From Candidatus Omnitrophota bacterium (GTDB taxonomy: Bacteria > Omnitrophota > Gorgyraeia > JAZDFF01): a stretch of 64,000 nucleotides of DNA. The notes under the pieces are model-generated. The model did no database searches, was not told the origin of the DNA, and was given only the letters and a program-made list of their open reading frames with translations. The DNA lies in contig JAZDFF010000011.1 of NCBI GenBank assembly GCA_043808095.1, forward strand, positions 48,030 through 112,029, in the 5' to 3' direction. Position numbers and translations under genes: made by a program. Positions 3,819 to 56,628 of the stretch are shown piece after piece; positions within the stretch are counted from its first letter, which is position 1; each line of letters starts with the position of its first letter.

Positions 3819-4107
3819 AAGTAATCCTTAAATTCGAAACAAATCTTTAGAAAACCCTAAACACTAAATTCTTCCCGCACAACTTGTAAAATATAGCGGG
3901 ATCCCGCAAAGCGGGAAAATCCTAAACAAACCTTAAACTCAAATTTTAAAATCCAAAAGCGCCTAACTTAGCTTGGGTTTTAGATTTTGTATTTTAGCCA
4001 TTTTGGGTTTATTTAGAGTTTGGGGTTTCGGATTTAGGGTTTACAATATTGGCTTTGTTGTTTTGGGATTCCATACTTCGTGCTTCGGATTTAGGGTTTA
4101 AATTAAC
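3819..4107. repeat. low-complexity intergenic region with inverted CCCTAAA/TTTAGGG words and a GCGGGATCCCGCAAAGCGGG hairpin
   Basis: Two copies of tcggatttagggttta occur, with inverted aaaaccctaaa and aatcctaaa words. ttcgtgcttcg is shared, as a reverse complement, with 1228-1239. Confidence 0.6.
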
Positions 4108-5439
4108 TTATAGTATCGGCAGGTATTTATCTATCTCGTATTGGGTAACCTGGGCTTTATATTCATCCCATTCCATTTTTTTGTTGCGGATAAAATATGC
4201 AAAAACGAAATCGCCTAATGCCTTTTTTACTAACTCGGATTTCTCGGTTAGTTTTATCGCTTCTAGCAAATCTTCTGGCAATGATTTAATCCTGGCGCGC
4301 TGTCTTTCTTCTTCAGTCATTCTATAAATATTGTCGTTTGCTGGCTCTATTAACGGGTATTTCTTTTCTAAACCCTCCAGTCCTGCGGTTAACATCGCCG
4401 AGAATGCCAGATAAGGATTGCAGGCCGGGTCAGGTGCGCGGTATTCAATACGCGTGGATTTTTCTCTACCGGGCTTATACATGGGAATGCGTATCAGCGC
4501 AGAACGGTTCATCTGTGCCCAGCACAGATACACCGGCGCTTCATATCCTGGAACTAATCTCTTATAGGAATTAACCCATTGGTTAGTCACCGAGGTAATT
4601 TCCGGAGCATGTTTAAGAAGGCCTGATATAAAGAGTTTGGCAATTTTGGAAATATGAAATTTATCTTTCGGATCAAAAAAGGCATTTCTTTTACCCTTAA
4701 AAAGAGACATGTGCGTATGCATTCCCGAGCCGTTTATGCCGAATACGGGCTTGGGCATAAAAGTAGCATGCAGGCCCTTTTGTTGGGCGAACTCCTTGAC
4801 TACAAAACGATAGGTCATGACATTGTCCGCCATAGTAAGTGCATCAGTATAACGCAGGTCTATCTCATGCTGGCTGGAGGCTACTTCATGATGGCTGTAT
4901 TCTACGACTATGCCTAACCCCTCCAGGGCCATAATAGTCTCCTGCCGCACATCCTGGGCAAAATCTAAAGGTGTCAGGTCAAAATATCCGCCCCTGTCCA
5001 AGACGATGGTGTTCTTAGGATTATTAAAATAAAAATATTCCAATTCCGGGCCGACATAATAGGTAAAACCCATCTTTTTTGCGCGCGCCAGGTTCTTTTT
5101 TAATACGTAGCGGGGGTCTCCTTCAAAAGGTTTGCCATCAGGGGTATAGATATCACAAAACATGCGGGCAACGTTACGGCCTTCTTTTGCCTCCCAGGGT
5201 AAAAGGGCAAAGGTATCCGGATCTGGCTTAGCAATCATGTCCGACTCTTCTATGCGGGCAAAACCCTCAATGGATGAGCCGTCAAATCCCATACCGTCTT
5301 CTAACGCCCGGGGCAATTCATCAATAGTCAAATCCAGGCCTTTTAAAAACCCCAATACGTCGGTAAACCAGAGCCGGATGTGTCTTACCTGCTTCTGTTT
5401 TACAATCTTCATTATCTCTTGTTTAGATCTTGAAGCCAT
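4108..5439 (-). CDS. glnA: glutamine synthetase type I
   Basis: 443 aa, with GS beta-grasp and catalytic-domain motifs (GFDGSS, HTHMS, NRSALIR). Confidence 0.9.
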   Translation of the reverse strand: MASRSKQEIMKIVKQKQVRHIRLWFTDVLGFLKGLDLTIDELPRALEDGMGFDGSSIEGFARIEESDMIAKPDPDTFALLPWEAKEGRNVARMFCDIYTPDGKPFEGDPRYVLKKNLARAKKMGFTYYVGPELEYFYFNNPKNTIVLDRGGYFDLTPLDFAQDVRQETIMALEGLGIVVEYSHHEVASSQHEIDLRYTDALTMADNVMTYRFVVKEFAQQKGLHATFMPKPVFGINGSGMHTHMSLFKGKRNAFFDPKDKFHISKIAKLFISGLLKHAPEITSVTNQWVNSYKRLVPGYEAPVYLCWAQMNRSALIRIPMYKPGREKSTRIEYRAPDPACNPYLAFSAMLTAGLEGLEKKYPLIEPANDNIYRMTEEERQRARIKSLPEDLLEAIKLTEKSELVKKALGDFVFAYFIRNKKMEWDEYKAQVTQYEIDKYLPIL

Positions 5440-5650
5440 TTATGCCTCCTTTAATGAGCGCTTGATTTATGGAGCACAAGGTGCGACATAAGTCAATCTT
5501 TTATGAATAGCATCTTTGATTGTGCGAATTGAATCCGCCAATGCTTTGTGGCGGATAGATTTCATTCGATTACAACGGATTTTTTTATTTTACATCAGTA
5601 CGAGTTTAAAGTAAAGCAAATTCCTCTGTTTGAATGGTTCAAATGGCAGG

Positions 5651-6406
5651 TTATCTCTTTTCTTGAGAGGTTAGTCTTTGTTGCAGAAATTCCCTGAACT
5701 CCTGGGGATACTCTATCTTTGCCTTCCCGGCTGAGCATTTATCGATACTTTCGATAATCTTGGGTATCCTCTCATAAGGAATGCTGATCAATAATTTATC
5801 TTTTTCTACATTACAGAGTTTTCTGGCAGTATAGTCATAGAAAGACAAATTAACCTCACCCGTTAGTAATGGATAGATGATACTCAACCGACAGGTCGGG
5901 CCTCCGATCTTAATCTTAGGCATATTGCCGTCTATAAAGGTTGAAAGCGTAAGCAGCCGGCAGGCGCTTTCGGGATTAGAGATAAAGATTACTAATTGCG
6001 GCTTAAATTCGCATTTTTCCATCGGGGAGAGGACAAAATAGGACTTAGAGTTATCGCCAACGTCTTCCATCTGGGAAATGAGCTTATCCAGGGCTTCGTA
6101 TGAACAGAATAACTTTTCTCCTTCAACCACAAACTGCTTTACCATCTGAATGATTTTGGGGTCTTTAAAATCGTAAAAACCCAAATGCCAGCCGGCCCCG
6201 AAACAGGCATTCGTGTCTTTGGCTATCTGAAGGGTCTCGCCTTTTGCGGCATCCAATATTGCCCGGCAGATGCGCAGCCTCTTATTACTATCTTTTAAAA
6301 ACGGTTCTTTCATACAGCTTAAGGCCACCGGGCTATATTCTAAATTAAGCAACTCTTTTAAAATTAATGAAAATTCCTGCCATTGTTTCTGCATAGTTAT
6401 CTCCAT
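5651..6406 (-). CDS. DUF169-like hypothetical protein
   Basis: 251 aa, soluble. Motifs NACFGAGWHLG and GGPTCRLS recall DUF169 (COG2043). The family assignment is from memory only. Confidence 0.4.
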   Translation of the reverse strand: MEITMQKQWQEFSLILKELLNLEYSPVALSCMKEPFLKDSNKRLRICRAILDAAKGETLQIAKDTNACFGAGWHLGFYDFKDPKIIQMVKQFVVEGEKLFCSYEALDKLISQMEDVGDNSKSYFVLSPMEKCEFKPQLVIFISNPESACRLLTLSTFIDGNMPKIKIGGPTCRLSIIYPLLTGEVNLSFYDYTARKLCNVEKDKLLISIPYERIPKIIESIDKCSAGKAKIEYPQEFREFLQQRLTSQEKR

Positions 6407-6500
6407 TAATGAGCAGACGACTTACGGAACGAAAGTGCGACGCCCTATTTCGCTAAAGCTTCCTACTACGCTAAAGCTTCGTAGGACAAGTCGTAGGGCT
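6407..6500 (-). promoter_or_regulatory. conserved structured 5' leader element, copy A (SD-proximal CTCATTAATGGAG plus an ACTTACG/CGTAAGT hairpin)
   Basis: Sense strand reads ...cgtaagtcgtctgctcattaatggagataactATG. It is homologous to 14548-14640 and 33515-33600. Confidence 0.55.
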
Positions 6501-6745
6501 GTTTCCGAGACCTTGGCGAAGGAAAACGTAAGTCGTAGCTCCGACGATACGTCGGAGCGCCTGCGCCTGCCTACTGGCAGGCGAGCATCCATACCGAAAA
6601 ACCGAGCTTCAAAACCTATGTACATAGTTTTGGCGGGTTTATCCCGTTACACCCAGAAAGCCCCGGTCTTAAGACTGGGATAAAATGGCAAATTAAAATT
6701 AACCATAGAAAATCCCCGTCCTTTATTGACAGGGTGTAATGGGGC

Positions 6746-7666
6746 TTACTTCTGTCGTGCTAGATATCTGAAGGCTGACAAGGCTGCCTTTGAGCCTTCT
6801 CCGGCTGCGATAATGATTTGTTTTTCCGGCATATCCGTAACATCGCCGGCTGCAAAAATTCCTGCGATATTAGTCTGGTTATAGCGGTCTATCTTGATTT
6901 CGCCGTATTGGTTTTTATCTATACCCTCGGCAAATTCCGAATTCGGAACAAGGCCGATTTCTACAAAAATCCCCTCAACCGGAATTGTCTCAACTTTACC
7001 TTCCCTTTTTATCTTGATGCCGCTTGCTAACTTCTGGCCGAGGACCGCTATCACCTGGCTATTATTAAGGACGGTTACTTTATTGCTTTCCTTAACCTTC
7101 TCCTGCATTATGGCGTCGCCGTTAAGGCCTGAGGCGCTATTTATAATATAAACGTGCCTGGCGATTCTTATTAATTGAAGCACGGCATCTAAGGCAGAGT
7201 TGCCGCCGCCGATAACCGCGACATCTTTTTGGCTAAACAACGGTCCGTCGCAGGTAGCGCAGTAGCTTAAGCCTTTATTCTTAAACTCACGTTCACCTGG
7301 TACATTAAGTTCTCTGGAGTGCTTACCCGAGGCAATAATCGCTGTCTTTGCTGTATAGGCGCCTTTATTGGTCTTAACGCTTACTATATTATTTACCTTT
7401 TTAATCTCAGCAACTATTTCGTTCTCTCTTAATTCAAGATTGTATTTACGCAGATGCTCTTCAAATTTAGCAGCTAACTCCGGACCGGTAATAAACTGAT
7501 AGCCGGTATAATTTTCTATATCACCGCTCCATGCAGCCTGACCGCCGATATCGCCGGTAATAACTAAGGTATTCAGCCTCTTACGTGCAGCGTAGACACT
7601 TGCGGTTATTCCCGCCGGACCTGCCCCGATAATAATCAAGTCATACATATCGTTTGTACTATTCAA
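6746..7666 (-). CDS. trxB: thioredoxin-disulfide reductase
   Basis: 306 aa with GAGPAG FAD motif, redox-active CATCDG and a second Rossmann motif. Confidence 0.9.
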   Translation of the reverse strand: MNSTNDMYDLIIIGAGPAGITASVYAARKRLNTLVITGDIGGQAAWSGDIENYTGYQFITGPELAAKFEEHLRKYNLELRENEIVAEIKKVNNIVSVKTNKGAYTAKTAIIASGKHSRELNVPGEREFKNKGLSYCATCDGPLFSQKDVAVIGGGNSALDAVLQLIRIARHVYIINSASGLNGDAIMQEKVKESNKVTVLNNSQVIAVLGQKLASGIKIKREGKVETIPVEGIFVEIGLVPNSEFAEGIDKNQYGEIKIDRYNQTNIAGIFAAGDVTDMPEKQIIIAAGEGSKAALSAFRYLARQK

Positions 7667-7679
7667 AAGTCATATTAAC

Positions 7680-7840
7680 AGCTTCCTTCGTTTTCGAAGC
7701 TCGTCTCTCGGTATGGATGCTCGTATCGATGCTCGTCTTTAGAGGCTCGTCCTTAAAATATTTTTCGAGCATCGAGCTTCCAGCTTCGATACTAGCATCT
7801 ACAACGTCAGACGAACATCTAGCATCTGGTATCTATAATC
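7680..7840. repeat. imperfect palindromic element of GATGCTCGT / CGAGCATC words, centred on TTAAAATATTTT
   Basis: gaagctcgtctctcggtatggatgctcgtatcgatgctcg ... cgagcatcgagcttccagcttcgatactagcatc. It lies between trxB and grx. Confidence 0.5.
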
Positions 7841-7847
7841 TATCTTC

Positions 7848-8087
7848 TTAACCTATCCCTAACGCCTGGCTTATCCTCTCTTTATCAAACCCGACTATAA
7901 TCTCTCCGTCTATATCTAAGACCGGAACACCCATCTGTCCGGAGATACGGATCATCTCCTCGGCTGCCTCGTGGTTGGCGGCTACATCAATATCTTGAAA
8001 TGAGATGTTGTTTTCCTTTAAGAATTGCTTGGCCCGGATACAGAAAGGGCACGTAGAGGTGCTATATACCTTGACTGTTTTATCCAT
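7848..8087 (-). CDS. glutaredoxin-like protein
   Basis: 79 aa with a CPFC active site in a thioredoxin fold. Confidence 0.75.
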   Translation of the reverse strand: MDKTVKVYSTSTCPFCIRAKQFLKENNISFQDIDVAANHEAAEEMIRISGQMGVPVLDIDGEIIVGFDKERISQALGIG

Positions 8088-8110
8088 GCATTGCCTCCTG
8101 GTATAATCGT

Positions 8111-8222
8111 TTAAGGGTCAGGAAGGGATAGTAGGAATCAGTAAGGGTTAGTAGGGGAGTTTAAAATTTTTAACCTTTCTAACCCTTTCTATCCCCTGCT
8201 ATAACCTACTAACCCCTAAACG
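8111..8222. repeat. ~110-nt G-arm/C-arm palindromic element, copy 1
   Basis: A left arm of GGGWTAG words and a right arm of CTAWCCC words flank a TTTAAAATTTTT centre. A near-identical architecture occurs at 24800-24912. Confidence 0.7.
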
Positions 8223-8255: not shown

Positions 8256-8732
8256 CTAAATAGATGCTCTTAAATCCAACAACTGCTTTAAGTGGCTTTG
8301 TTCTTGAGCAACCAAATTATCTATTGCCTTATGATCGCTTATTGGAACCACCTTCTTCATCCCCTCATAAAAAACAACTGAGTCCTTTTCAAACTTTATG
8401 CCGATGTCTACAGCTTCTTTATCGCCTTTAATTTTTTGCGCGATTTCGTTTCCTTTATTTTCCTGGGTAAACACATATTCTACGGCCAAAGCGCTCATAT
8501 AAGCCAGGTATTCTCCAGGATAAGATTCTGGCGGCTCATATCTGCCTACCGACTCCAGCATCTCTTGAAAGACAATAATGTGTTTTTCTTCCTCGCCTTT
8601 AAGAAATACAAAGACTTTCTTTATCCTGGGATCCCGGGTTTGACCTGCTATGGTGTTATAAAAATCCCTGCCATTTTTCTCAATCTGAATTCCCAACTCC
8701 ACTATCTCGCTACCTGAAAAAATATTGGCCAT
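8256..8732 (-). CDS. rubrerythrin-family (erythrin-like) ferritin-fold protein without a rubredoxin domain
   Basis: 158 aa with two E..E/ExxH di-iron motifs (EEKHI, EQSHL). Confidence 0.6.
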   Translation of the reverse strand: MANIFSGSEIVELGIQIEKNGRDFYNTIAGQTRDPRIKKVFVFLKGEEEKHIIVFQEMLESVGRYEPPESYPGEYLAYMSALAVEYVFTQENKGNEIAQKIKGDKEAVDIGIKFEKDSVVFYEGMKKVVPISDHKAIDNLVAQEQSHLKQLLDLRASI

Positions 8733-10907: not shown

Positions 10908-11060
10908 ATCTAACCCTCCCTCAATGAGCCCGCCATTGATGCAGTGGCGGGCGATTTGATCCCGCCCTTTTGGATATATAAAGATTGGGGTTAACAAACC
11001 AAAAGGGCGGGACAAATTCGGACAGCAATTTACGTTCGCTTCGCTTCGTAAATTGCGTCT

Positions 11061-11222
11061 TCATATTATCTTCTCAAACATATCCTTGCTCACACCGCAT
11101 TCAGGACAGACCCAGGTATCCGGCAAATCACTAAAGGCTGTCCCCGCGTTTATGCCATTGTCCGGGTCACCAACCGCAGGGTCATAGATATAACCGCAAA
11201 CTGTGCAACGATATTTTTCCAT
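11061..11222 (-). CDS. rubredoxin (53 aa; below the ORF-track size cut-off)
   Basis: Hand translation gives [53 protein letters not shown], a classic CxxCG...CPxCG rubredoxin. Confidence 0.85.
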
Positions 11223-11389
11223 TGCCTTAACTCTCCTTATTTACGCCTATCTCTTTTTCTTCTTTGCCTTTTTCTTTGGTTTTTTTACTCCGCAGCCACA
11301 GCATCCCATCTCTACACCTCCTCAAATGACCCCCTGCTGTTTCGTTTTGTTTCGCTTGCTTCACAAAACGGAACAAAACGACAGGGGGG

Positions 11390-11640
11390 AATTTGATCCC
11401 GACGTATCGTCGGGGTAAGTGGTTCAACTTCGCTCTGGTTCGACTTTGCTCTGGTTCGACTTTGCTCACCATTCGCCCTGAGCAAGCTCGCCAGAGGCGA
11501 GCGCGTCGAAGGGCTCACCATCCTTCGAATGCATTCGACTACACTCAACATTCGTCCTGAGCTTGTCGAAGGACGAACCATCCTGAGCGCAGTCGAAGGA
11601 TTCGGCCTAATCCCGACGTATCGTCGGGATGGCCTCACTT
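11390..11640. repeat. composite MITE-like element bounded by identical 20-nt palindromes (ATCCCGACGTATCGTCGGG), carrying GTCGAAGG/CCTGAGC repeats
   Basis: The terminal hairpins lie at 11396-11415 and 11610-11630. The interior has duplicated ctctggttcgactttgct and an ~75-nt block whose reverse complement recurs at 31880-31955. The right terminal hairpin encodes the last 7 aa of FprA. Confidence 0.65.
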
Positions 11641-14310: not shown

Positions 14311-14547
14311 CTATATGGCAATAACCTCTTTAACACTTGGCACTTCTTGTTTAATCAATTTCTCAATGCCCATCTTCAGAGTCATTGAACTCATCGGACA
14401 ACAGCCGCAGGCACCGGTAAGTTTTACCTTTACCGTCCCGTCATCTGTTACCTCAACAAGCTGGACATCCCCGCCATCAGCCGCAAGCATGGGCCTGATC
14501 TTATTTAAGGCTGCCTCTACTTTTTCTTTCATGTTTTCCTCCTTCAA
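14311..14547 (-). CDS. NifU-like (Nfu C-terminal domain) Fe-S cluster protein
   Basis: 78 aa: ...GGDVQLVEVTDDGTVKVKLTGACGCCPMSSMTLK... Confidence 0.8.
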   Translation of the reverse strand: MKEENMKEKVEAALNKIRPMLAADGGDVQLVEVTDDGTVKVKLTGACGCCPMSSMTLKMGIEKLIKQEVPSVKEVIAI

Positions 14548-14640
14548 TGAGTAGACAACTTACGGAGTTCGAAGAACGACGTAAGTTGTAGGACGAAGTC
14601 CGTCTGCGAATTCCTGCCTGCCGGCAGGCAGGGAACCCAG
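14548..14640 (-). promoter_or_regulatory. conserved structured 5' leader element, copy B
   Basis: + strand reads ctccttcaatgagtagacaacttacggagttcgaagaacgacgtaagttgtagg...ccgtctgcgaatt...gcctgccggcaggc. Confidence 0.55.
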
Positions 14641-23833: not shown

Positions 23834-24763
23834 TTATTTTTCTTGAAACAACCAGGTTGAGAGATATCTTTCTCCGGTATCAGGTAGCACTACTATAATC
23901 AGTTTCCCCTTGTTCTCCTTACGTTTGGCGACCTCTAATGCCGCCCATAAGGCCGCGCCGCTTGAGATGCCGGCAAGAATGCCCTCTTCTTTTGCCAGGC
24001 GCCTGGCAGTTATCCCGGCATCTTCATTAGTAACTTGAATTATCTCATCAATTATATCACGATTTAAAACCTGGGGTACAAAGCCTGCACCGATTCCCTG
24101 AATCTTATGCGGACCAGGTTGGCCACCAGATAATACAGCTGAGGCAGTAGGTTCAACAGCAATAGCCTGAAAACCCTTTTTCCTTTTTTTGATTACCTCA
24201 GCTACTCCGGTAATCGTACCTCCTGTCCCTACCCCCGATACCAGGATATCGACCTTGCCATCTGTATCATTCCAGATTTCTTCGGCGGTAGTCTTACGGT
24301 GGATTTCGGGGTTAGCCGAATTATTGAACTGCTGGAGGATAACCGCTCCGGGAGTAACTTTGGCTAATTCTTCTGCTTTTTTGATTGCGCCTTTCATGCC
24401 TTCTACGCCCGCAGTTAAGACGAGCTCTGCGCCAAAAATGGAAAGTAACTGCCGCCTTTCTATGCTCATCGTATCCGGCATAGTAAGTATCAGCCGATAT
24501 CCTTTGGCCGCCGCTACGAAGGCCAGGGCAATCCCCGTGTTTCCGCTAGTAGGTTCAATAATCACCGAACCTTTTTTGAGCGCTCCTTTTTTTTCGGCGT
24601 CTTCAATCATCGCCACCCCGATTCTGTCCTTTACGCTGGATAAGGGATTAAATGATTCAAGCTTTGCCAGTATCTGGGCTTCCAAGCCTTTACCTATGCG
24701 GCTAAGCCTTACCAGGGGAGTATTTCCAATGGTCTTTGTAATATCTTCAAATATTCTCACCAT
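23834..24763 (-). CDS. cysK: cysteine synthase A (O-acetylserine sulfhydrylase)
   Basis: 309 aa, PLP fold II, with a [10 protein letters not shown] motif. Confidence 0.9.
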
Positions 24764-24799
24764 CTGCCTCCAAATCTTTTCAAAAATCGTAATAGTTCA

Positions 24800-24912
24800 T
24801 TTAAGGGTTAGGAAGGGGTAGTATGGGTTAGAAAGGGATAGTGGGGGAGTTTTTTAAAATCCCCCCTACTTACCCCTGCTGACCCTTCCTGTCCCTTGCT
24901 ATCCCCTAAACG
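24800..24912. repeat. ~110-nt G-arm/C-arm palindromic element, copy 2
   Basis: tttaagggttaggaaggggtagtatgggttagaaagggatagtgggggag TTTTTTAAAA tcccccctacttacccctgctgacccttcctgtcccttgctatcccctaaacg. Confidence 0.7.
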
Positions 24913-24935: not shown

Positions 24936-26273
<1,338 letters not shown>

Positions 26274-27569: not shown

Positions 27570-27656
27570 CTTAACCTCCGATTTGCTGTATTTTTTCTTC
27601 TGTCTGCAAATCGTCCCGAGTCCCGACGTAACGTCGGGACGAGGGACAATTATACC

Positions 27657-31859: not shown

Positions 31860-31975
31860 TCGACTTGGCTCTGGATGGTTCGCGAGAGATGGTGAGTCCT
31901 TCGACGCGCTCGCCTTTGGCGAGCTTGCTCAGGGCGAATGGTGAGCAAAGTCGAACCAGAGCACCGCCGAACTAA
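31860..31975. repeat. inverted partial copy of the MITE-like element
   Basis: gatggtgagtccttcgacgcgctcgcctttggcgagcttgctcagggcgaatggtgagcaaagtcgaaccagagc is the reverse complement of 11445-11520, with 2-3 mismatches. Confidence 0.75.
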
Positions 31976-33514: not shown

Positions 33515-33600
33515 ATTTCCCTCCTTTTAATGAGCAGACGACTTACGGAGTCGAAGACGACGTAAGTCGTAGGCCTAAAAGGCCGTCTGCGAATTAATCC
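33515..33600 (-). promoter_or_regulatory. conserved structured 5' leader element, copy C
   Basis: + strand reads ccctccttttaatgagcagacgacttacggagtcgaagacgacgtaagtcgtaggcctaaaaggccgtctgcgaatt. Confidence 0.55.
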
Positions 33601-39822: not shown

Positions 39823-39885
39823 TCTATGATACTCCAAACAAAAACCAAATTCAAGCCAGGAAAATATAGGAGTGAATTTATCCTG
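39823..39885. repeat. direct repeat, left copy, flanking the ICMT cassette
   Basis: tatgatactccaaacaaaaaccaaattcaagccaggaaaatataggagtgaattta is ~80-85% identical to 40768-40830. Confidence 0.65.
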
Positions 39886-39990
39886 AGCCCTTCGGCAAGC
39901 TCAGGGTAAACTGAGTCGAGGTATTTCGCAACTGGCTATGCTCGAAAGAGGCTGAAAAACTATACAAAGAAATACTTAATATCTAATGAA
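39886..39990. repeat. MITE-family fragment (CCTGAGCCCTTCGGCAAGCTCAGGGTAAACTGAGTCGAGG)
   Basis: Its reverse complement occurs at 43172-43215. Confidence 0.65.
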
Positions 39991-43139: not shown

Positions 43140-43430
43140 GGGGGTGGGCAGGCGCAACAAAGTATCCTTCGACTCAGTTTACCCTGAGCTTGCCGAAGGG
43201 CTCAGGGTGGATTCTCCGCGCCCAAATGGTTAGTCTATCGAACCATAAATGACAACGCCCTTCGCTATCCAAGGCTTACTTTACCACATAATAAAATGGT
43301 GAGCAAGCCCTGAACGAAATGAAGGGCGCGTCGAACCACTCCCCTTCGTGGACGACCTTCGCAACACTTCGACAAGCTCAGTGCAAGCTTTTTTGGAGGA
43401 ATTTAAGAGCTATTGTTTAAGTCAGGAAGC
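43140..43430. repeat. MITE-family repeat block (GTCGAAGG / CCCTGAGC...GCTCAGGG hairpins)
   Basis: tccttcgactcagtttaccctgagcttgccgaagggctcaggg ... ggtgagcaagccctgaacgaaatgaagggcgcgtcgaacc. Confidence 0.65.
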
Positions 43431-55656: not shown

Positions 55657-56628
55657 TTACAAAATATCCTTTTCTTCTATTATCTTCATCTCAACAATTT
55701 CGTCCATTCCTTTTACCAACGCTGTCGCTTTTTCTTTTCCTAAGACAAAAATGGCGGTACTCATCGCATCCGCTGCAGTTGTGGTATCAGCTACGATAGT
55801 TACAGAAACAATCCCATTATCAACCGGATAGCCTGTTTTAGGATTTATGATATGGCTGTAACGTTTCCCGTTAAGCATAAAAAATTGCTCGTAGTCACCT
55901 GATGTGGCTACTGCCTGGTTTTCAAGATCCAAAGGATAGAGTATCTGGCCAGGATTGCGTGGATGACGTATGGCCACTCGCCATTTACGGTTTCCTCTCC
56001 TGCCCAAACAGTAGATATCACCGCTTAAGTTTACCATTGCCGAGGTTATTCCCAAAGACTTAAGACGGCCGACGGCTTTATCGACTGCGTATCCCTGAGC
56101 AATTCCTCCCAAGTCAATTGCCATACCTGGCTGCATAAACGTAATCAAAGATGTTGTTTCATCAATTGAAATTTTTTCCGAGCCAATGAGCGGCAACTTT
56201 GCGTAGATATCATGAGAAGGAGGCAACGATACTTGCGTTTTTTCCTCCTGCGCCTCTTTGATTTTTTGTTTCCATATATCAGCCACGGGACTAACGGTAA
56301 TATCAAATGCATCGTTACTGAGCTTGTGGTATTTAAGCGAATTTTTCACCAGGGCCATCATATCGCCTGATGCCTTGAGGGTTCCCATTCTGTTCAGTTG
56401 CGATATTTCTGATGAGGGGTCAAAATTACTGGCTATTGCCTCGATCTTGCTTATCTCCTCAAACGCAGCATTAATTGCGTCTTTATCCTGGCAGGTAATT
56501 TCTGCAAACGTCCCCATTACAATACGAGTCTCTGTATAGTAAGGTCTGGAACAACCGAATAATCCAAACCACAGGACCAAGAGAATCGAAATCCTAAAAA
56601 AGAAACATCGGAAACTATTAATCCTCAT
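55657..56628 (-). CDS. apbE: FAD:protein FMN transferase (ApbE-family lipoprotein)
   Basis: A lipobox-like LFGC is followed by ...RIVMGTFAEI (the MGT motif) and an ApbE fold. Confidence 0.75.
   Translation of the reverse strand: MRINSFRCFFFRISILLVLWFGLFGCSRPYYTETRIVMGTFAEITCQDKDAINAAFEEISKIEAIASNFDPSSEISQLNRMGTLKASGDMMALVKNSLKYHKLSNDAFDITVSPVADIWKQKIKEAQEEKTQVSLPPSHDIYAKLPLIGSEKISIDETTSLITFMQPGMAIDLGGIAQGYAVDKAVGRLKSLGITSAMVNLSGDIYCLGRRGNRKWRVAIRHPRNPGQILYPLDLENQAVATSGDYEQFFMLNGKRYSHIINPKTGYPVDNGIVSVTIVADTTTAADAMSTAIFVLGKEKATALVKGMDEIVEMKIIEEKDIL

Follow-up and report, generated by a model that had tools for sequence, protein, structure and literature searches.

Palindromic Elements at Operon Junctions of an Omnitrophota Bacterium: Probable ORF-Less Miniatures of a PF05635 Cassette Family

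The 64,000-nt stretch of Omnitrophota DNA analyzed here (in the following, the window) contains two palindromic elements of common build, each located between two genes of the same strand. We propose that these palindromes are ORF-less miniatures of a family of cassettes harboring a PF05635 gene, and that their stem is probably cut by RNase III within the operon mRNA. Taken as a whole, this is the explanation that we consider probable. Its two parts differ in weight: the family link between the short elements and the PF05635 cassettes is well supported and can be held with considerable confidence; the RNase III processing step is proposed by analogy, with prospects slightly short of even.

Two G-Arm/C-Arm Palindromes Are Present in Intercistronic Spacers

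An earlier note on this DNA had described two palindromes of the same architecture at 8111-8222 and 24800-24912, intercistronic within same-strand gene strings. Our analysis bore this out: nhmmer placed the elements at 8108-8222 and 24798-24912, both folded strongly, and all flanking genes are encoded on the minus strand. In the direction of transcription, the order of the first string is rubrerythrin-family gene, copy 1, grx, the 7696-7819 hairpin and trxB, and that of the second string is metY, copy 2 and cysK. The features are listed below; L002 is a contig of a relative.

6582-6602, no strand assigned: 21-nt fragment with 90% complementarity to 7703-7723 (arm of the GATGCTCG hairpin), an inverted repeat within a 339-nt highly structured spacer
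6746-7666, minus strand: trxB (thioredoxin-reductase-like), downstream of the 7696-7819 hairpin; 74% aa identity to the L002 orthologue, which is annotated Pyr_redox_2
7696-7819, minus strand: hairpin of the same architecture with unrelated sequence, 124 nt, between grx and trxB; -51.2 kcal/mol, z-score -5.7
7848-8087, minus strand: grx (glutaredoxin), downstream of copy 1; 78% aa identity to the L002 orthologue, which is annotated PF00462
8108-8222, minus strand: copy 1 of the G-arm/C-arm element, between the rubrerythrin-family gene and grx
8256-8732, minus strand: rubrerythrin-family gene, upstream of copy 1; PF02915 (E 9.6e-09), 63% aa identity to the L002 orthologue
23834-24763, minus strand: cysK-type PALP gene, downstream of copy 2; 84% aa identity to the L002 orthologue, which is annotated PF00291
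24798-24912, minus strand: copy 2 of the same element, between metY and cysK
24936-26228, minus strand: metY (O-acetylhomoserine sulfhydrylase), upstream of copy 2; 91% identity to L002 MetY

Both copies follow one plan, in which an arm of ~50 nt, an A/T centre of 13-17 nt and a ~50-nt arm of complementary words form an imperfect palindrome of ~113 nt in total. The arm words are ~10 nt long and share the core GGG-N-[T/C]AG. The element ends are conserved (CGTTTARGGG... and ...CCCYTAAACG), i.e., terminal inverted repeats are present. The arms of copy 1 (8108-8156 and 8174-8222, 49 nt each) are 71% complementary without gaps and enclose the A/T loop at 8157-8173; the centre of this copy is TTTAAAATTTTTAA. 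In copy 2 the arms extend over ~24798-24849 and 24863-24912, and the centre is TTTTTTAAAA. The sequence that had been assigned to 8111-8222 (aagggttaggaaggggtag..., the TTTTTTAAAA centre and ...atcccctaaacg) is actually that of copy 2.

Alignment of the two copies together with their flanks revealed 82% identity over 147 columns. The 18-mer TTTAAGGGTYAGGAAGGG, which is common to the copies, gave three matches (≤3 mismatches) versus a chance expectation of 0.17: both left ends were exact matches, and the third was the right end of copy 2 on the reverse strand. A profile search retrieved exactly two copies from the 64-kb window. Copy 1 was detected with an E value of 6e-28 (95.4 bits on the minus strand versus 76.6 bits on the plus strand, with copy 1 itself in the profile) and copy 2 with an E value of 2.5e-29 (99.9 versus 90.0 bits, with copy 2 itself in the profile). 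The minus-strand (transcribed) fold was one long hairpin of -48.0 kcal/mol for copy 1 and -53.5 kcal/mol for copy 2, with z-scores of -5.3 and -4.6, respectively; none of 200 shuffled sequences folded equally well.

The strict asymmetry between a G-strand and a C-strand that had been described for the arms stood only in part. The arms are present, but the asymmetry is identical on both strands, as it is in any palindrome, and it therefore defines no orientation. No sigma-70-like promoter pattern and no intrinsic terminator pattern was detected within the spacer of either copy; the single promoter-like match of the scanned stretch was inside metY. In an Rfam search of the window at the gathering score, no family matched the element. 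The sole match was a c-di-AMP riboswitch (RF00379, 56851-57021, minus strand, 71.8 bits), which occupies part of the 514-nt spacer preceding the gene at 55657-56628.

Comparison to Relatives Reveals Insertions into Tight Operons

The gene orders PNPOx-Rbr-Grx-TrxB and MetY-CysK-MetX are kept in L002, with 59-91% aa identity of the proteins. The spacers between these genes are of very different length:

Rbr to Grx: 11 nt in L002, 168 nt in the window
Grx to TrxB: 1 nt in L002, 181 nt in the window
MetY to CysK: 8 nt in L002, 172 nt in the window

From the short spacers of L002 we concluded that all three hairpins of the window are insertions into tight operons. In two other relatives, the metY-cysK spacer comprises 29 nt (L054) and 125 nt (L052). 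The elements are missing at the orthologous junctions of L002 and L054, and the spacer of L052 (11288-11412) is occupied by another repeat, with four tandem units of CCACCTACGGGGTGGAGC after one inverted copy. The L052 repeat is an independent invasion of the metY-cysK junction, and operon junctions of Omnitrophota are sites of repeated invasion. The enlarged, hairpin-filled spacers of Omnitrophota may have a concrete source.

The Elements Belong to a Family with Further Copies in Metagenomes

Metagenomes were scanned with the degenerate pattern CRTTTARGGGNYAGNARGGGNYAG, which covers the element end and two words. The scan yielded 36 loci, among them ~25 true hairpins of like design, ~20 of which are distinct. 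About 7-8 of the 36 loci were chance matches or arrays of G-words without a C arm (L010, L019, L021, L024/29/32, L036). A profile built from 17 copies re-detected the family with E values of 1e-17 to 1e-32. Most copies are located between co-directional genes, with few nt to spare on each side, and the host junctions are unrelated to each other (T2SS pseudopilin genes, rluB/nadC, neighborhoods of response regulators). The possibility that only the two copies of the window exist, as a local duplication, did not hold in view of the ~20 further distinct copies from metagenomes: these are repeated elements. Scanning the contigs of GTDB representative genomes with TTTAAGGGTNAGGAAGGGNTAG gave one chance match without a second arm, in a Chitinophagales MAG. 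The scanned viral contigs contained no copies, just two chance matches which were both known from the metagenome scan.

Some loci show the words in unpaired arrangements. At L036:14-90, tandem GGGGTCAG(T/A) words are present without a complementary C arm, and at L051:10387-10453 a perfect (CCCCCTTCTG)x3 expansion affects one arm alone. The arms seem to grow through slippage of the words.

Long Forms of the Element Enclose a PF05635 Gene

On three contigs, the arms of the element bracket a gene of ~120 aa that belongs to PF05635 (23S_rRNA_IVP/four-helix bundle), and the resulting cassettes have a length of ~475-545 nt. L014, a contig of 5.1 kb with a pseudopilin/T2SS operon, harbors four copies: two short ones and one long one (510-983), which is duplicated at 1245-1718. 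The long copy at 510-983 encloses an ORF of 122 aa in the sense of the host genes, with matches to PF05635 (E 9e-20) and TIGR02436 (four helix bundle protein, E 1e-17); the only solved homologue of its product is the uncharacterized protein XCC0516 (PDB 2GSC). The start codon follows directly after the last G-word (AAGGGAGA-ATG), and this last G-word of the arm is the ribosome-binding site of the cassette gene. Homologues of the L014 ORF are common in MAGs of Omnitrophota and CPR. As an observation on the contig itself, the cassette together with 261 nt of the downstream gene is tandemly duplicated with a period of 735 nt (510-1979), which reflects a true duplication or else a collapse/expansion of the assembly at the repeat.

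The second cassette (L042:2951-3429) is located between a pseudouridine synthase gene and nadC, and its protein has 81% aa identity; for the third (L051:9914-10459) the value is 69%. The profile of the short elements detected the arms of all three cassettes, with E values of 2e-11 and 6e-8 for L014, 8e-14 and 6e-8 for L042, and 2e-7 for L051. The last 27 nt of copy 1 of the window differ from the end of the L014 cassette at one position. Short and long forms occur together on L014 and on L051, and in the folds of the long forms the two arms pair with each other.

The 20-kb contig L051 contains three PF05635 genes and one PDDEXK_3 (PF13366) gene, each within long imperfect inverted arms, and each set of arms is built from its own iterated words (GTCGCCAGT, GGGNTAG, TAGGGN or ACAGAT). 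A further ORF-less G/C-arm element is present at L051:12813-12914. The same contig carries at 5345-6161 a RAYT/IS200-like Y1_Tnp gene that is flanked by a direct repeat of ~40 nt (GGATGGGACAGRCTTCAATAGCGCCAAAAGAGCGTCCCT). In one MAG each of Margulisiibacteriota and Patescibacteria, too, the PF05635 genes are preceded by a G-rich arm and followed by a C-rich arm, both made of other words. Arms and proteins compare as follows:

protein identity ≥69%: same arm family
protein identity 57-65%: arms G/C-rich, with other words
protein identity 29-44%: arms different

The similarity of the arms thus tracks the identity of the proteins, which speaks for joint inheritance of arms and ORF. An origin by entry of the ORF into pre-existing hairpins is disfavored, since arms and ORF diverge together. 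In the window, neither a PF05635 nor a PDDEXK_3 ORF was found by phmmer with all ORFs of at least 50 aa or by a Pfam search with 20 small ORFs.

The Elements Have a Preferred Polarity and Invariant Word Cores

When read in the sense of the adjacent genes, nearly all copies have the 3' end ...TAAACG(A), and the 5' end is mostly TGTTTA. The profile scored the sense strand higher in every copy, including four of four copies which had been kept out of the profile. Several copies finish with ...TAAACGAGGAG immediately 5' of the next start codon, and in the window the ribosome-binding site of grx (AGGAGG) is located 8 nt past copy 1. The element may supply the downstream ribosome-binding site, or it may insert just upstream of that site.

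We rejected compensatory changes between the copies. With 47 in-register pairs of 17 copies, 75.9% of the cells were paired, versus 77.0% when the partners were shuffled among copies, and pairs with a double change were as rare as expected (9 observed versus 10.0). The stem thus shows no covariation, and its pairing is accounted for by the invariant GGG/CCC and TAG/CTA cores. Between the cores, the spacer positions change independently in each arm; the GGG and TAG cores are nearly invariant (16-17 of 17 sequences). The cores are invariant in sequence, beyond mere pairing, and this speaks for specific recognition of the sequence or for a recent shared origin of the copies. On the sense strand, 60 G:U and 47 A·C combinations were counted, a difference that is not significant (p = 0.25), and of 19 copies, 12 had the better MFE as the antisense and 6 as the sense strand. 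In view of both strand comparisons, the hairpin could therefore matter at the DNA level only.

The PF05635 Cassettes Resemble the Intervening Sequences of 23S rRNA

The intervening sequences (IVSs) of 23S rRNA genes are the only characterized carriers of the PF05635 gene family. IVSs with the S23p/PF05635 ORF occur in Coxiella and Leptospira, and ORF-less IVSs of ~100 nt in Salmonella, Yersinia and Campylobacter. The IVS of Coxiella comprises 428 nt with an S23p ORF and a 28-bp terminal stem, which is cut by RNase III in its middle (PMC4990558). The family described here shares with the IVSs a long form of ~450-550 nt with a PF05635 gene (in L014, L042 and L051; the window copies are ORF-less) and termini whose complementarity gives rise to a long stem. 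It also shares an ORF-less stem-loop form of ~100 nt and a position within a transcribed non-coding stretch. The window copies and all examined metagenome copies differ from the IVSs in being located between protein-coding cistrons, whereas IVSs are inserted in helices 9, 25 or 45 of 23S rRNA. The arms also differ, with ~50 nt of 10-nt words here and a 28-bp stem in the IVS, for which excision by RNase III is known. Because parts and sizes are alike and the location is in mRNA spacers, we propose the elements as IVS-type cassettes and their miniatures.

Under this proposal, the short form of ~113 nt would be derived from the long form of ~475-545 nt. With their location in intercistronic spacers and one preferred polarity, the elements would be co-transcribed in the operon mRNA, in which the arms are expected to pair to a stem of ~45 bp with periodic mismatches. 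By analogy with the 23S rRNA IVSs, this stem may be cut by RNase III. Such a cut would take the insert out of the RNA and divide the operon mRNA at the junction. It would leave each cistron end base-paired and protected, with a presumed effect on the flanking cistrons. The earlier suggestion of RNA hairpins that segment polycistronic mRNAs would fit the RNase III-excised IVS, which is the closest analogue.

A small PF05635 gene wedged among co-directional genes of an unrelated operon has a parallel in Pleurocapsa, where such a gene is located between cmr3 and cmr2 (PMC3936711). The co-occurrence with cas genes was read as functional association in that study, which described neither flanking stems nor ORF-less derivatives. 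PF05635 genes within cas or other operons may instead be hitch-hiking cassettes and not functional partners, which is of importance for annotation (PMC3936711). The PF05635 domain itself is functionally uncharacterized (PMC11270868). In the open literature that we searched, IVSs were described in rRNA genes only, and we came across no account of PF05635 cassettes bracketed by stems at operon junctions or of their ORF-less derivatives. Origin, mobility and function of the IVSs and of the very widespread PF05635 genes have been open questions since the early 1990s (PMC4990558; PMC11270868). The presence of ORF-bearing and ORF-less members at many junctions, together with a measurable polarity and invariant words, makes these questions testable.

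A broader interpretation would place PF05635 and PDDEXK_3 mini-gene cassettes with word-array stems into one general class of selfish elements, which could use any transcribed spacer as a site, including the tips of rRNA helices and operon junctions. Excision by RNase III would make the insertion harmless, the invariant words would be bound sequence-specifically by the element's own Avd-like protein, and the ~113-nt palindromes would be non-autonomous satellites. We regard this generalization as tentative and rather unlikely to hold in full; if it is true, the classical IVS of 23S rRNA is just the most visible special case.

Other Explanations for the Palindromes

The elements had been likened in the earlier note to REP/BIME or Correia-type repeats, and both assignments have to be weighed against the descent from PF05635 cassettes. 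REP sequences carry a 5' GTAG, and REP/BIME elements can stabilize the upstream mRNA. As doublets of the REPIN/BIME type, the palindromes would be moved by a RAYT and act as extragenic stabilizers of mRNA. They are indeed extragenic palindromic repeats within operons and form hairpin doublets of ~110 nt, GTAG or TAG is found in many words and recalls the 5' GTAG of REPs, and a Y1_Tnp (PF01797) gene is present on the Omnitrophota contig L051, which also bears elements. This gene (5498-6037) is, however, flanked by the different repeat GGGACAGRCTTCAATAGCGCCAAAAGAGCGTCCC and not by G/C-arm words. It was the only Y1_Tnp gene seen in the loci examined, and no RAYT with the arms of the elements was found among them; the long forms bear PF05635 genes instead. 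Each arm is a 50-nt array of iterated words, unlike the single REP palindromes of 20-40 nt, and the observed density is low (only two copies in 64 kb). Since defining features fail, we consider membership in REP/BIME very unlikely. A similarly low probability applies to classical MITEs of the Correia/NEMIS kind, i.e., deletion derivatives of DDE insertion sequences that are moved in trans and generate a target-site duplication. Correia/NEMIS elements of Neisseria are likewise intergenic inverted-repeat elements of ~100-150 nt; they are co-transcribed with the neighboring genes, and their hairpin is processed by RNase III. Terminal inverted repeats are present in our family as well, and the near-identical A-rich loops of the short copies at L005, L012 and L013, which are different loci, suggest that the short form itself transposes. 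Correia elements are set apart by their TA target duplication, their IHF site and their outward promoters. No flanking direct repeat was visible in ~20 copies of the family described here, although their ends are not fixed by a precise empty site, and no transposase was found with these arms: three of three long forms contain the gene for the ~120-aa four-helix bundle alone.

The location of both window copies in operons of thiol and sulfur metabolism could be taken to indicate hairpins, or G-quadruplex/i-motif switches, that evolved in the host for cis-regulation or stabilization of redox and sulfur-assimilation operons. Copy 2 fits the canonical G-quadruplex pattern (four G3+ tracts, loops of 1-7 nt) on both strands and is the sole match in the 64 kb. 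Copy 1 fails this motif, three of the four other arm sets of L051 and the 7696-7819 hairpin have no G runs, and the complementary arm is just ~15 nt away from the G arm, which also counts against a quadruplex. The idea of a G-quadruplex or i-motif, raised in the earlier note, is therefore weak. Regulation of these operons is further contradicted by the lack of the elements at the orthologous junctions of L002 and L054, by the different repeat in L052, by family members between unrelated genes and by the missing Rfam match. The distribution of the family has already largely refuted a host-evolved regulatory role, and it hardly deserves credence. Better placed, but still improbable, is the assumption that the word arrays are iterated binding sites about one helical turn apart for a sequence-specific binder, most plausibly the Avd-like protein of the cassette, with the pairing of the arms as a secondary matter. 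Avd binds nucleic acid. The near-invariance of GGG and TAG extends to words outside the constraint of the search pattern, the word spacers vary freely and do not covary between the arms, a constraint on pairing alone would permit G-C to A-U swaps, and each PF05635 or PDDEXK_3 lineage has words of its own. The homologue Avd accompanies the reverse transcriptase of DGRs (PMC10053308). The invariance of the cores could nevertheless be due in part to a recent shared ancestor of the copies, no PF05635 or PDDEXK_3 gene was found in the window, and replication slippage can also yield a periodicity of words, as exemplified by the triple expansion in the L051 arm. ORF-less miniatures of PF05635 cassettes with a putative RNase III-cut stem remain our preferred explanation.

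Other Structured Spacers of the Window

The earlier note had also listed a third, looser element of the same logic between trxB and grx. The hairpin at 7696-7819 is real and consists of GATGCTCG/CGAGCATC words around an A/T centre; its sequence is unrelated to that of the two copies, and the architecture alone is common. The fragment at 6582-6602 repeats its arm in inverted orientation, so that related arm fragments bracket trxB. Going by architecture, the 7696-7819 hairpin probably represents a different arm family, as one of its ORF-less members, and the other spacer hairpins of the window are, for the same reason, probably ORF-less members of sister families. The window is rich in large same-strand spacers with long hairpins of diverse sequence. 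When all other spacers of the window were compared by blastn to the retrieved loci, no relatives of the other hairpins, including that at 7696-7819, were found; the exception was the leader motif CGTAAGTCGTCTGC.

This leader motif is located directly 5' of at least five start codons and combines a short hairpin (ACGACTTACG...CGTAAGTCGT) with a downstream CTGCTCATTAA(A)GGAG. It is present at 6401-6433, 14539-14600 and 33522-33600 and in weaker form at 1838, 5451, 21624 and 37783. It also occurs at L017:9769-9832, on another Omnitrophota contig, and has no match in Rfam.

The 289-nt spacer at 3819-4107 contains a very long hairpin (-71 kcal/mol) with words of the AACCCTAAA/TTTAGGGTT type; it is word-built as well, with a different sequence, and its C-rich arm is 5' in the transcript. 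Two families of inverted repeats have their members far apart: 11438-11527 and 31883-31972 show 92% complementarity over 90 nt, and 39874-39924 and 43164-43214 show 90% complementarity over 51 nt. Both families are rich in TCGAAGG and CTGAGC...GCTCAGG words and are sited in large structured spacers. Short GC-rich hairpins of the CCCGACGTATCGTCGGG form were seen at 11392-11415, 11606-11629 and 27616-27639 and also at 1371-1420, and CCTGCCTGCCGGCAGGCAGG recurs at ~14611-14634 and 6550-6570. The spacer at 11016-11311 holds a small uncalled ORF, which matches the L002 rubredoxin gene (5682-5846) with 94% DNA identity along 47 nt.
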